Assembly (NCBI RefSeq): GCF_013122565.1
Contig: NZ_CP053258.1
Length of the DNA stretch: 64,000 nt
DNA from: Escherichia coli
GTDB taxonomy: Bacteria > Pseudomonadota > Gammaproteobacteria > Enterobacterales > Enterobacteriaceae
Reading direction: 5' to 3' (one strand)
Position 1 is the stretch's first letter, and each line of letters begins with the position of its first letter. Of the stretch, positions 3,006 to 63,935 are shown in pieces. The position numbers were made by a program, and so were the translations under genes. The notes below the pieces were generated by a model, which was given only the letters and a program-made list of their open reading frames with translations, was not told the origin of the DNA and did not search any database.

Positions 3006-3061
3006 ATATGTGTTAATGAAACCTTCTTGACGCTGATTTTTTTTCAACCTAAAGTAAAGGA

Positions 3062-3210
3062 ACAAGGGTAAGGGAGGATTTCTCCCCCCTCTGATTGGCT
3101 GTTAATAAGCTGCGAAACTTACGAGTAACAACACAATCAGTATGATGACGAGCTTCATCATAACCCTTTCCTTATACAAGGCCCCTTCTTCGGGAGGGGC
3201 TTTCCCGTTT
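3062..3210 (+). ncRNA. sibE: Sib-type antisense sRNA (antitoxin of ibsE); ends approximate
   Basis: Promoter TTGACG (3027-3032), 17-bp spacer, TAAAGT (3050-3055); hairpin 3181-3200 plus T-tract; antisense to ibsE. Confidence 0.6.
3102..3161 (-). CDS. ibsE: Type I toxin Ibs family, 19-aa peptide MMKLVIILIVLLLVSFAAY
   Basis: Hand translation of the minus strand gives ATG ATG AAG CTC GTC ATC ATA CTG ATT GTG TTG TTA CTC GTA AGT TTC GCA GCT TAT TAA. Confidence 0.8.
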   Translation of the reverse strand: MMKLVIILIVLLLVSFAAY

Positions 3211-5087: not shown

Positions 5088-5717
5088 TTACAATATTTGG
5101 GGCCAGGGATTGTTTTCCGCCAAATATCGAGTTGCAGAAAGTCGGCAAATAATTAACACTTTGTCTCCTTTAGTGAAAATTTTTCCTTCTTCAGGCTCCA
5201 GTAGTAAATAATGTATTTGGCCAAATTGATCGGTGAGTTTTCCTTCGCAGGGATTACCTGAAGTGGCTTGATGACCGGTAATTAACGCCATGCTACCAAT
5301 ATATTCTTCTTCTGTAATAGCTGAACTATGATCGCGTGGAATCCAGGGCGCAACTATTTTACCGGTATAATGCACCGCAATAATCGTAAATAGTAAACTG
5401 ACAGGAACCACAAACAGGTTCGAGAGTGGTGATTGCCAGACCATGATGCAGGTATGCTGCAACAGGATGCCAATAAGACCAAAAAAACCAGCCAGTAAGC
5501 AAAGAACGACGAGAGCTGGCAATCTTCCGATATTGAGATAATGAAGTGCCTGGCTAATATGACCTGTGGTTATGGAATCATAATGGTCAAGATGTGCATC
5601 AAGTGCACCGGAGAGCATGTGACCGCAGATAAGCGCAAAAATTTCTAAAAGGCCGATCAACAGTACAAAGGAAATAGCGAAAAGATAAGGGGTGTTATAG
5701 TCGGCGAATAAAATCAT
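5088..5717 (-). CDS. yqiJ: NfeD-like inner membrane protein, partner of YqiK
   Basis: 209-aa polytopic hydrophobic ORF immediately upstream of yqiK on the same strand. Confidence 0.85.
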
Positions 5718-5985
5718 ATGTCACTCCAATGTCCATTTAGTGACGCAATATTTACTTTGGGATAGTTTCCTTGCTTACATTTATCTTTGTTAATAATAAC
5801 ACATGTTAGAGAAGTTCTGGAAGAAAAAGTCTTTTAATATGGTTTTTTATTTTTCACTAAAAAGTGTGATCGGGGACAATATATTTACGCACGTTATGTT
5901 TAAAGGCACTACACTGATTGGGGAATACTGAAATCAGAAAAAGCATATGGCCTTAAAAGGTATGCGATAACCGGAGGATGTGCTT

Positions 5986-6186
5986 ATGGATCATAGTCTT
6001 AATTCTTTAAATAACTTCGATTTCCTGGCGCGTAGTTTTGCCAGAATGCACGCAGAAGGTCGCCCGGTCGATATTCTGGCCGTTACTGGTAACATGGATG
6101 AAGAACATAGAACCTGGTTTTGCGCACGTTATGCCTGGTATTGCCAACAGATGATGCAAACCAGAGAACTTGAATTAGAACACTGA
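5986..6186 (+). CDS. glgS: Glycogen synthesis / surface-composition regulator GlgS (66 aa)
   Basis: Translation [66 protein letters not shown]; long AT-rich upstream region. Confidence 0.9.
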
Positions 6187-6190
6187 TATT

Positions 6191-6213
6191 ACGGGCCGTC
6201 TGGCCCGTTTTTG
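6191..6213. terminator. Terminator hairpin (CGGGCC gtct GGCCCG + T-run) in the convergent glgS/ubiK junction
   Basis: Perfect 6-bp GC stem followed by TTTTT; sits between the stop codons of convergent genes. Confidence 0.6.
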
Positions 6214-6220
6214 TGTTGCT

Positions 6221-6520
6221 TTATTCTGCTTTATCAATAGGCGGGATAGCCGGAGGAGATTGAAGATCTGCTACCGAATTATTGCGCGCTTCCAGTTCAC
6301 TGATGCGTTGCTCCAGTAACGCCAGTTTCTCACGAGTCCGTAACAGGACTTGCGTTTGGACGTCGAACTCTTCACGGCTTACAAGGTCGAGGCGCGTCAG
6401 CTGCGCTTGTAGGGTTTGGCGGATTTTTTTCTCCACATCTTCCCCGAACTCCCTGATTCCTTTAGGCATTGATTCGTGAACCTGGCGAGCGATTTGCTCA
6501 ATTTTTTTCGGGTCAATCAT
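6221..6520 (-). CDS. ubiK: Ubiquinone biosynthesis accessory factor UbiK (YqiC, BMFP family)
   Basis: ORF 6221-6580; start placed at internal Met ([13 protein letters not shown]...) to give ~99 aa; coiled-coil protein. Confidence 0.8.
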
Positions 6521-6606
6521 TGTAGTTTCCCTGTACTGATAGGTGTTGAGTGCCATTGTAGTGCGATAAGGGTAAGTCATAAACCAGAATTATGTGAAGC
6601 TATGCG

Positions 6607-6635
6607 TTGCTGCCGCTAATCATTAGCGTTATAGT
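6607..6635 (+). promoter_or_regulatory. Putative ribB promoter (-35 TTGCTG, 17-bp spacer, -10 TATAGT)
   Basis: Hexamers with canonical spacing just upstream of the riboswitch aptamer. Confidence 0.5.
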
Positions 6636-6644
6636 GAATCCGCT

Positions 6645-6795
6645 TATTCTCAGGGCGGGGCGAAATTCCCCACCGGCGGTAAATCAACTTGGTTGAAAGC
6701 CCGCGAGCGCTTTGAGTGCGAACTCAAAGGACAGCAGATCCGGTGTAATTCCGGGGCCGACGGTTAGAGTCCGGATGGGAGAGAGTAACGATTCT
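6645..6795 (+). promoter_or_regulatory. FMN riboswitch (RFN element) in the ribB leader; boundaries approximate
   Basis: Conserved RFN core: GGGCGGGGCGAAATTCCCCACCGGCGGTAAA...CCGGGGCCGACGGTTAGAGTCCGGATGGGAGAG upstream of ribB. Confidence 0.85.
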
Positions 6796-6893
6796 GTCGG
6801 GCATGGACCCGCTCACGTTATTTTGGCTATATGCCGCCACTCCTAAGACTGCCCTGATTCTGGTAACCATAATTTTAGTGAGGTTTTTTTACC

Positions 6894-7547
6894 ATGAATC
6901 AGACGCTACTTTCCTCTTTTGGTACGCCTTTCGAACGTGTTGAAAATGCACTGGCTGCGCTGCGTGAAGGACGCGGTGTAATGGTGCTTGATGATGAAGA
7001 CCGTGAAAACGAAGGTGATATGATCTTCCCGGCAGAAACCATGACTGTTGAGCAGATGGCGCTGACCATTCGCCACGGTAGCGGTATTGTTTGCCTGTGC
7101 ATTACTGAAGATCGCCGTAAACAACTTGATCTGCCAATGATGGTAGAAAATAACACCAGCGCCTATGGCACCGGTTTTACCGTGACCATTGAAGCGGCTG
7201 AAGGTGTGACTACCGGTGTTTCTGCCGCTGACCGTATTACGACCGTTCGCGCAGCGATTGCCGATGGCGCAAAACCTTCTGATCTGAATCGCCCTGGCCA
7301 CGTTTTCCCACTTCGCGCGCAGGCAGGTGGTGTACTGACGCGTGGCGGTCATACTGAAGCGACTATTGATCTGATGACGCTGGCAGGCTTTAAACCGGCT
7401 GGTGTGCTGTGTGAGCTGACTAATGACGATGGCACGATGGCGCGTGCACCAGAGTGCATTGAGTTTGCCAATAAACACAATATGGCGCTCGTGACTATTG
7501 AAGACCTGGTGGCATACCGTCAGGCACATGAGCGTAAAGCCAGCTGA
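6894..7547 (+). CDS. ribB: 3,4-dihydroxy-2-butanone 4-phosphate synthase
   Basis: 217-aa ORF matching RibB as remembered ([17 protein letters not shown]). Confidence 0.95.
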
Positions 7548-7580
7548 AAACCGCTGCTTAATTTACTGCCTTAATCAAGA

Positions 7581-7614
7581 AACCGAAGTTGTAGCAGGCT
7601 TCGGTTTTTATTTT
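7581..7614 (+). terminator. Intrinsic terminator after ribB
   Basis: Stem AACCGAAG / CTTCGGTT followed by TTTTTATTTT. Confidence 0.7.
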
Positions 7615-46932: not shown

Positions 46933-47036
46933 ACGTTCCTCCTTTATATGAACTCACCGGAGCAGGCTCCGGTGAGGTGTTGTGAACTTAAGTCTGGACG
47001 AAATGCCCGAAAACGAAAGTTTGAGGCGTAAAAAGC

Positions 47037-52743: not shown

Positions 52744-52962
52744 ATTGCCTGATGCGCTACGCTCATCAGGCCTACAAAATCTATTGCAACATGTTGAATC
52801 TTCGTGCGTTTGTAGGCCGGATAAGGCGTTCACGCCGCATCCGGCATTAGGGGCTCAATGCCTGATGCGCTACGCTCATCAGGCCTACAAAATCTATTGC
52901 AACATGTTGAATCTTCATGCGTTTGTAGGCGGATAAGGCGTTTTCGCCACATCAGGTAAGAG
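52744..52962. repeat. REP/BIME cluster: two tandem ~113-bp units, each with paired REP palindromes
   Basis: Repeated gcctgatgcgctacgctcatcaggcctaca and gtaggccggataaggcgtt...gccgcatccggca motifs. Confidence 0.85.
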
Positions 52963-63854: not shown

Positions 63855-63935
63855 GTAGGCCTGATAAGACGCGATAGCGTCGCATCAGGCATTGTGCTCG
63901 ATTGCCGGATGCGGCGTGAATGCCTTATCCGGCCT
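63855..63935. repeat. REP palindromic units downstream of hybG
   Basis: gtaggcctgataagacgcgatagcgtcgcatcaggc and gccggatgcggcgtgaatgccttatccggcc. Confidence 0.8.

Follow-up and report, generated by a model that had tools for sequence, protein, structure and literature searches.

The ribB locus and its allele

The window analysed here, a 64,000-nt stretch of an Escherichia coli chromosome, carries in order sibD/sibE, yqiK, yqiJ, glgS, ubiK, ribB, yqiD, zupT and ygiD, and our subject is the segment 6607-6893 that lies directly upstream of ribB (Table 1). The open reading frame at 6894-7547 matches the DHBP_synthase family (PF00926; 280.7 bits, E 6.2e-84), and its translation is 100% identical to E. 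coli RibB. On the same strand, upstream of this gene, a cmscan search with Rfam 15 placed the sole FMN riboswitch match (RF00050) of the window, at 6642-6790, with 121.4 bits against a gathering score of 66.2 (E 7.8e-28) and an untruncated alignment to model positions 1-138 of 138. A preliminary description of this DNA had recognised an FMN riboswitch in a ribB leader, and had named a covariance-model score below threshold as grounds for giving up that assignment; the score lies above the threshold, and the PF00926 reading frame downstream of the match confirms that the leader is that of ribB. The same description had rated the element as known and of low interest, which agrees both with the PGAP annotation, in which E. 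coli genomes have an FMN riboswitch at the same bases as the aptamer of the window, and with the prior literature. The FMN riboswitch of K-12 ribB has reportedly been studied by Winkler (2002), Hollands (2012), Pedrolli (2015), Bastet (2017) and Eschbach (2024).

All but one of 5426 complete E. coli genomes (5425) carry the segment 6560-6900 (341 nt) at an identity of at least 95%. Aligned with K-12 MG1655 as far as 6900, the leader has only three differing positions. Two of these are adjacent, 6690-6691, which read TG here and CA in K-12 and fall in the loop of the P3 extension (UUG versus UCA); the third, 6715, is A here and G in K-12 and turns a G.U pair of the P4 extension into A-U. From 6716 to the end of the aligned stretch at 6900, start codon included, the two sequences are identical. 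All three differences are structure-neutral, and other E. coli genomes carry a leader allele 100% identical to that of the window. The K-12 ribB (SroG) leader has the same locus, promoter and leader length of 252 nt as the window, and its P1, core, anti*-P1, switch strand, Shine-Dalgarno sequence and AUG are all as in the window; it differs by the substitutions at 6690 and 6691 (P3 loop) and 6715 (P4 extension), so that the allele of the window contributes three neutral polymorphisms only.

For comparison across genera we used 80 ribB loci from other Enterobacteriaceae, with RibB identities of 87-100% and leader identities of 62-99%. Promoters were compared in the window together with the 79 loci that had enough upstream sequence (80 leaders, 75 distinct sequences), and structures were counted in 29 diverse Enterobacteriaceae leaders or in all 80.

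On the far side of ubiK, at the glgS-ubiK junction (6187-6230), the window is without the ygiL-yqiGHI fimbrial operon that separates these two genes in K-12 and in strain 504239. The contiguous junction is common to 2062 of 5426 complete E. coli genomes (~38%), and with it ubiK (6221-6520) has 99 codons, not 96. Within the ubiK coding sequence (minus strand), the stretch 6308-6392 holds ten substitutions relative to strain N3, the closest genome of the same junction type, eight of them lying a multiple of 3 nt apart, which suggests that a divergent ubiK allele, differing at third codon positions, was brought in by recombination. Across 5700-6700 the highest identity was only 98.6%.

Table 1. 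Features of the ribB promoter, leader and coding sequence in the window
Feature	Coordinates	Strand	Remarks
-35 hexamer TTGCTG	6607-6612	+	3/6 vs TTGACA
Promoter spacer	6613-6629	+	17 nt
-10 hexamer TATAGT	6630-6635	+	5/6 vs TATAAT
Inferred +1 (G)	6642	+	from published numbering; RF00050 match starts here too
FMN aptamer (RFN element)	6642-6790	+	RF00050
P1	6644-6651/6781-6788	+	pairs in 96.7% of cells (29 leaders)
P2	6658-6660/6668-6670	+	pairs in 94% of cells (29 leaders)
Junction pairs	6674-6675/6758-6759	+	
P3	6676-6679/6701-6704	+	pairs in 99% of cells (29 leaders)
P3 extension	6684-6688/6692-6696	+	1 pair changed on both sides
P4	6707-6709/6733-6735	+	
P4 extension	6710-6717/6722-6729	+	6/8 pairs changed on both sides
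P5	6739-6743/6751-6755	+	pairs in 100% of cells (29 leaders)
P6	6761-6763/6771-6773	+	pairs in 100% of cells (29 leaders)
Hairpin H1 (GUCGGG...CCCGC)	6796-6812	+	in MFE
C-rich, G-poor stretch, candidate rut	6802-6871 (C/G ratio raised over 6802-6881)	+	+161 to +240; from base composition
anti*-P1 3' strand CGUUAUUUU	6816-6824	+	pairs with AGAGUAACG at 6782-6790
Small hairpin H2 (GGC-UAUAU-GCC)	6825-6835	+	in MFE
Switch strand GCCCUGAUUCUGGUAA	6851-6866	+	complementary to both 6644-6656 and 6889-6902
anti-P1 (ON)	6650-6656/6851-6857	+	CAGGGC/GCCCUG plus U-A
Weak ON helix UUAUU/GGUAA	6644-6648/6862-6866	+	
Sequestering stem (OFF)	6854-6866/6889-6902	+	13 pairs, U6895 bulged
Shine-Dalgarno GAGG	6880-6883	+	in loop of sequestering stem
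ribB CDS	6894-7547	+	217 aa; 3,4-dihydroxy-2-butanone-4-phosphate synthase; ORF

Promoter and probable transcription start

The two promoter hexamers match the consensus at 8 of 12 positions in total and were not listed by the consensus scanner. Shuffling gave an expectation of 0.37 occurrences of TTG-N20-TATAGT per window, and 31 of 100 shuffles held one or more. The preliminary description had spoken of an identifiable TTGCTG-17-TATAGT promoter; its hexamers and spacing proved exact, but at 8/12 the promoter is not identifiable from the sequence of the window alone. Because the consensus match is weak and unlisted by the scanner, the support for this promoter is comparative. Not one of the 80 Enterobacteriaceae leaders departs from TTG, a 17-nt spacing and TATAGT; the -35 variants among relatives are TTGCCG, TTGCCC, TTGATG, TTGCCA and TTGCTG. 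The hexamers stand 8 nt upstream of the TTATTCTCAGGGC P1 motif (9 nt in two loci), and the discriminator and most other spacer positions vary among the same 80 leaders. An invariant TTG-17-TATAGT at a fixed distance from P1 is, as judged from these alignments, a clear phylogenetic footprint of a promoter.

The position of the transcription start can be read from published work on the K-12 leader, in which the transcript studied was 282 nt long, comprising the leader and 10 codons, and the anti*-P1 stem was given as 141-149/175-183, with the pair G149:C175 and exactly two G-C pairs (Eschbach et al. 2024, PMC11571811). With +1 at 6642, this stem falls base for base on 6782-6790/6816-6824 and the 282-nt construct puts the AUG at +253, which is 6894. 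From the numbering of the construct we infer that transcription starts at about 6642. The -10 hexamer then occupies -12 to -7, ending 6 nt upstream of the inferred +1, and the G at +1 is invariant in 75 of 75 distinct sequences. The arrangement is that expected of a sigma-70 promoter, with a -35/-10 spacing within 16-18 nt and a -10 hexamer 5-9 nt upstream of the inferred start.

The spacer of this promoter includes a perfect 15-bp palindrome at 6614-6628 (CGCTAAT-C-ATTAGCG), which is Escherichia-specific. What is conserved across genera is the block TAATCAWTRGCGT (-25 to -13), in which A-20, G-16 and G-14 are invariant and C-15 is present in 74 of the 75 distinct Enterobacteriaceae sequences; positions -29 to -26 vary in this set. 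By this comparison, conservation of the block exceeds what contacts with sigma-70 would explain. That the block is an operator for some transcription factor, adding an FMN-independent layer of ribB control that responds to pH, iron or redox, is conceivable, and we consider it quite improbable. A survey of the literature limited to iron and Fur yielded no regulator of the ribB promoter; enterobacterial ribB is described as lacking Fur repression, and iron induces ribB in Shigella. Induction of RibB at low pH, and overexpression of ribB in Salmonella ST313, have been reported with no mechanism given (PMC7456131). A reading of the palindrome as a Fur box, which reached 13/19 in an alignment made by hand, was not supported; a search for the 19-mer Fur consensus that allowed up to 3 mismatches gave no hit.

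The aptamer and its expression platform

Several lines of comparison bear on the aptamer fold. In the 29 diverse leaders the whole OFF-state structure pairs in 93.9% of alignment cells, compared with 40-51% for controls slid by 1-3 columns. The covariation score was 0.144 versus 0.074 in shuffles, with none of 500 shuffles reaching the observed value, and the sources of this signal were the P3 extension, the P4 extension and the platform hairpin H1. The third P4 pair (G6709/A6733) is canonical in none of the 29 leaders. RF00050 was found at the same position in 18 of the 20 relatives scanned. By every feature that can be checked in sequence the locus is a member of RF00050; FMN binding itself rests on the literature for K-12, the leader of which binds FMN with a Kswitch of 176-206 nM by RNase H probing (PMC11571811).

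The P3 hairpin is expanded in some relatives, and these expansions are lineage-specific. Expansions of 50-57 nt were seen in Salmonella arizonae/diarizonae, Citrobacter sedlakii and Kluyvera genomosp. 1 (loci L013, L017, L018 and L044; about 2190-2395). P3 loop regions of 136 nt occur in a Pseudocitrobacter MAG and in Kluyvera genomosp. 3 (L021 and L038; leaders of 376-377 nt), both with a further hairpin nested within the extension. These two leaders score below the Rfam gathering score, and their P1, core and platform are intact.

Between the end of the aptamer and the AUG of ribB lie 103 nt (6791-6893), close to the ~100 nt that the preliminary description had allotted to an expression platform, and this platform holds a nearly invariant block, ACUCCUAAGACUGCCCUGAUUCUGGUAACC. 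Its first element, H1, has changed on both sides at 3 of 5 pairs among genera and pairs in 92% of cells. H1 ends at +171, 10 nt before the pause site at 181; published work located pauses at 175/181 and 247-249 and studied mutants of anti*-P1 (PMC11571811). We think that H1 is probably the hairpin behind the pauses at +175/+181. Downstream of H1 lies the 3' strand of anti*-P1, the partner of which at 6782-6790 takes in most of the P1 3' strand, and the helix is extended by pairing of GGGAG (6777-6781) with CUCCU (6840-6844). Both anti*-P1 and its extension form in the unconstrained minimum free energy (MFE) structure, and across 80 sequences they pair in 95% and 99% of cells, respectively. The U run in the anti*-P1 3' strand is U4 here and U7 in 46 of 81 leaders; its length ranges from 1 to 8 among genera, and for this reason distal anti*-P1 is not strictly conserved. 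The small hairpin H2 pairs in 49% of cells and is missing in several genera, which suggests that it is probably dispensable.

The remainder of the platform is built around the switch strand, which can pair either with the 5' end of the aptamer or with the start of ribB. The AUG and codons 2-3 of ribB make up the 3' strand of the sequestering stem, and the Shine-Dalgarno sequence in its loop is weakly paired to AAUUUU at 6871-6876, a pairing seen in 89-90% of cells without covariation. A start-codon-sequestering stem and a competing anti-P1 helix are thus both present in the 103 nt, in line with the earlier proposal of translational sequestration. The two helices each pair in 98-100% of cells (29-80 leaders), and 12 of the 13 pairs of the sequestering stem never vary among Enterobacteriaceae leaders. 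Neither stem showed covariation in the 80 leaders, in which their sequences are essentially invariant; with so little variation across genera, covariation can neither support nor contradict these pairings, the support for which comes from complementarity and conservation. Overlapping constraints from the AUG, the codons and the aptamer core could also account for this conservation. In K-12, an RNase H probe to 218-227 reports increased protection with FMN (PMC11571811). An alternative anti-sequester helix that uses P6, GGUUAGAGUC with GAUUC..UAACC, was tried and rejected; it was 40-58% paired, scored one base out of register, and the published description is better fitted by anti-P1 with the 5' end of the aptamer.

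Folding models give a succession of helices as the transcript lengthens. In MFE structures P1 forms in a 150-nt transcript, the CAGGGC/GCCCUG anti-P1 helix forms in transcripts of 226 and 247 nt, and the sequestering stem forms in transcripts of at least 262 nt. In these models the order of helices matches published binding data, according to which complexes halted at +175 bind FMN tightly (23 nM) and those at +247 are refractory (about 7.7 uM; PMC11571811). In constrained ensembles, the unpaired probabilities within the AUG were 0.04 for A and 0.00 for G when the aptamer was enforced, and 0.96 for A, 0.85 for U and 0.24 for G when anti-P1 was enforced. The full-length MFE was -89.0 kcal/mol, compared with -81.2 for the modelled ON state and -70.8 for the modelled OFF state. 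Because this structure is neither the ON nor the OFF state, the nearest-neighbour model alone fails to reproduce the switch, a failure that agrees with published accounts in which control is kinetic and cotranscriptional. The folding energy of the leader was not below that of shuffled sequence (z -0.67 and -0.47), and thermodynamic stability is no evidence for this element.

Proposed control of ribB by FMN

Taken as a whole, 6607-6893 is almost certainly a sigma-70 promoter followed by the 252-nt E. coli ribB leader with the single FMN riboswitch of the genome, its OFF/ON mechanism included. The riboswitch leader is real, intact, ordinary and already known. Transcription would begin at about 6642, and the first 149 nt would fold into the six-helix FMN aptamer. 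Should FMN bind before RNA polymerase has left the platform, P1 (6644-6651/6781-6788) would be locked; published data place this binding window before the pause near +247 (PMC11571811). The 5' end of the aptamer would then be barred from pairing with the switch strand (6851-6866), which would instead pair with 6889-6902, burying the AUG, holding the Shine-Dalgarno sequence in a closed loop and blocking translation initiation. With the C-rich platform unprotected and untranslated, Rho would terminate transcription in the leader or early in ribB. When FMN is absent, 6816-6824 would capture the 3' strand of P1 as anti*-P1, and the switch strand would capture the 5' strand of P1 together with the AGGGC core as anti-P1; the AUG would then be free, ribosomes would load and access of Rho would be reduced. 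Deletion of the leader derepresses ribB and riboflavin production (PMC9885008).

Two parts of this scheme, sequestration of translation and Rho-dependent termination, are both described for the K-12 platform (PMC11571811, PMC5499598, PMC10085680), and the Rho dependence proposed here rests on the literature for that identical platform. In the ribB leader the rut site is described as held within a hairpin when FMN is absent and as accessible when the ligand is present (PMC10085680, PMC5499598); ribB had a Rho termination score of 3.1 in a rho R66S ChIP experiment (PMC5499598), and ligand-dependent Rho termination at ribB was seen in vitro in single-molecule assays (PMC10085680). In the window, the C/G ratio in 40-nt windows is 1.3-2.0 over +161 to +240 versus 0.3-0.9 in the 3' half of the aptamer, consistent with a candidate rut region there. 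It is only in the FMN-free model that the C-rich segments CUCCU and GCCCUG are paired to the ends of the aptamer, in agreement with the published account of the rut site; the mean modelled unpaired probability of 6836-6861 barely shifts between the states (0.43-0.47).

These data also bear on how Rho would come into play. If the switch acted on translation only, Rho termination would be an indirect result of an untranslated ribB mRNA, a route that has been shown for thiM (PMC5499598). The sequestering stem does cover the AUG, a second stretch with C in excess of G lies in the first codons (+251 to +290), and the effect of ligand on Rho termination at ribB is modest, at +7.0 or -3.0 percentage points depending on the route (PMC10085680). 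Against this, ribB is described as a case of direct control (PMC5499598, PMC10085680), its Rho termination depends on ligand in vitro, where ribosomes are absent (PMC10085680), and the FMN-free restriction of the CUCCU and GCCCUG pairing is what a direct route would have. We therefore regard a purely translational switch as unlikely, and favour the dual mechanism set out above.

An FMN-controlled intrinsic terminator in the leader, a hairpin with a U-tract of the kind used by Bacillus subtilis ribD, would be very unlikely. A U run does follow 8 nt after H1, reaches U7 in 46 of 81 related leaders and coincides with the published pause sites 175/181. In the window, however, the run is U4 only and its length is 1-8 nt among genera, UCACGUUA intervenes between the run and the G+C stem, and the run also makes up the 3' strand of anti*-P1, a helix that would form in the ON state. 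A terminator scan of 6642-6893 found no intrinsic terminator, and the riboswitches of E. coli are stated to do without such terminators (PMC11571811).

The leader has also been viewed from the side of its RNA, since an sRNA named SroG derives from it (PMC7456131). It is nonetheless most improbable that the main product is a stable trans-acting SroG, a fragment of ~150 nt corresponding to the aptamer, with control of ribB in cis being secondary. Leader deletion derepresses ribB in cis (PMC9885008), SroG and ribB of Salmonella share one promoter and one transcript (PMC7456131), SroG has no known target, and the OFF state would be expected to yield a terminated or processed fragment as a by-product. 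That the match might be functionless, a riboswitch look-alike arisen by chance or through decay, is backed by nothing more than the non-significant folding-energy z-scores and has a negligible likelihood given the full-length model match (E 7.8e-28), near-universal presence in E. coli (5425/5426 complete genomes) and a core conserved across genera with compensatory changes.

The cis-acting FMN riboswitch of ribB can be set beside other leaders. The B. subtilis ribD riboswitch shares the aptamer family and the ligand, and there too FMN stabilises P1 and turns expression off, under kinetic control that, as for ribB, involves pause sites (PMC11571811). The two differ in output: ribD uses an intrinsic terminator and antiterminator, whereas the leader in the window would use start-codon sequestration plus Rho. 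The TPP riboswitches of E. coli thiM and thiC and the mgtA leader of Salmonella resemble ribB in that they have an anti-P1 competitor, pause transcription in a regulatory manner close to the start codon and lower their mRNA through Rho (PMC5499598, PMC5234074); they differ from it in aptamer and ligand. In thiM the action of Rho is indirect and follows the block of translation, whereas ribB is described as exposing its rut site directly.

As an antibacterial target the ribB FMN riboswitch has been validated (ribocil, roseoflavin), and it also serves as a model of cotranscriptional riboswitch control and of its coupling to Rho. As a positive control for the noncoding RNA content of the window, the scan recovered this textbook riboswitch at the right coordinates, together with its promoter and expression platform. 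The present comparison makes modest additions, namely that the promoter and switch strand are invariant in Enterobacteriaceae, that H1 covaries and that P3 is expanded in some lineages, and leaves the established picture unchanged.

Other elements of the window were noted in passing. Downstream of ribB, 7580-7614 on the plus strand consists of AAACCGAAG, a 10-nt loop and CUUCGGUUU, followed by a U-rich stretch, and is likely the intrinsic terminator of ribB; the scanner missed it because its loop exceeds 8 nt. A match to the ES173 sRNA (RF02753) lies at 46971-47034 on the minus strand (99.0 bits against a gathering score of 90), and matches to naRNA4, a REP-derived family (RF02564), lie at 52815-52885 on the plus strand (65.5 bits) and 63858-63934 on the minus strand (85.7 bits). 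Two tandem SIB RNAs (RF00113) on the plus strand, at 2651-2800 (142.8 bits) and 3027-3176 (150.8 bits), are the counterparts of K-12 sibD and sibE; the ibsD and ibsE toxin reading frames run antisense to them, making type I toxin-antitoxin pairs.
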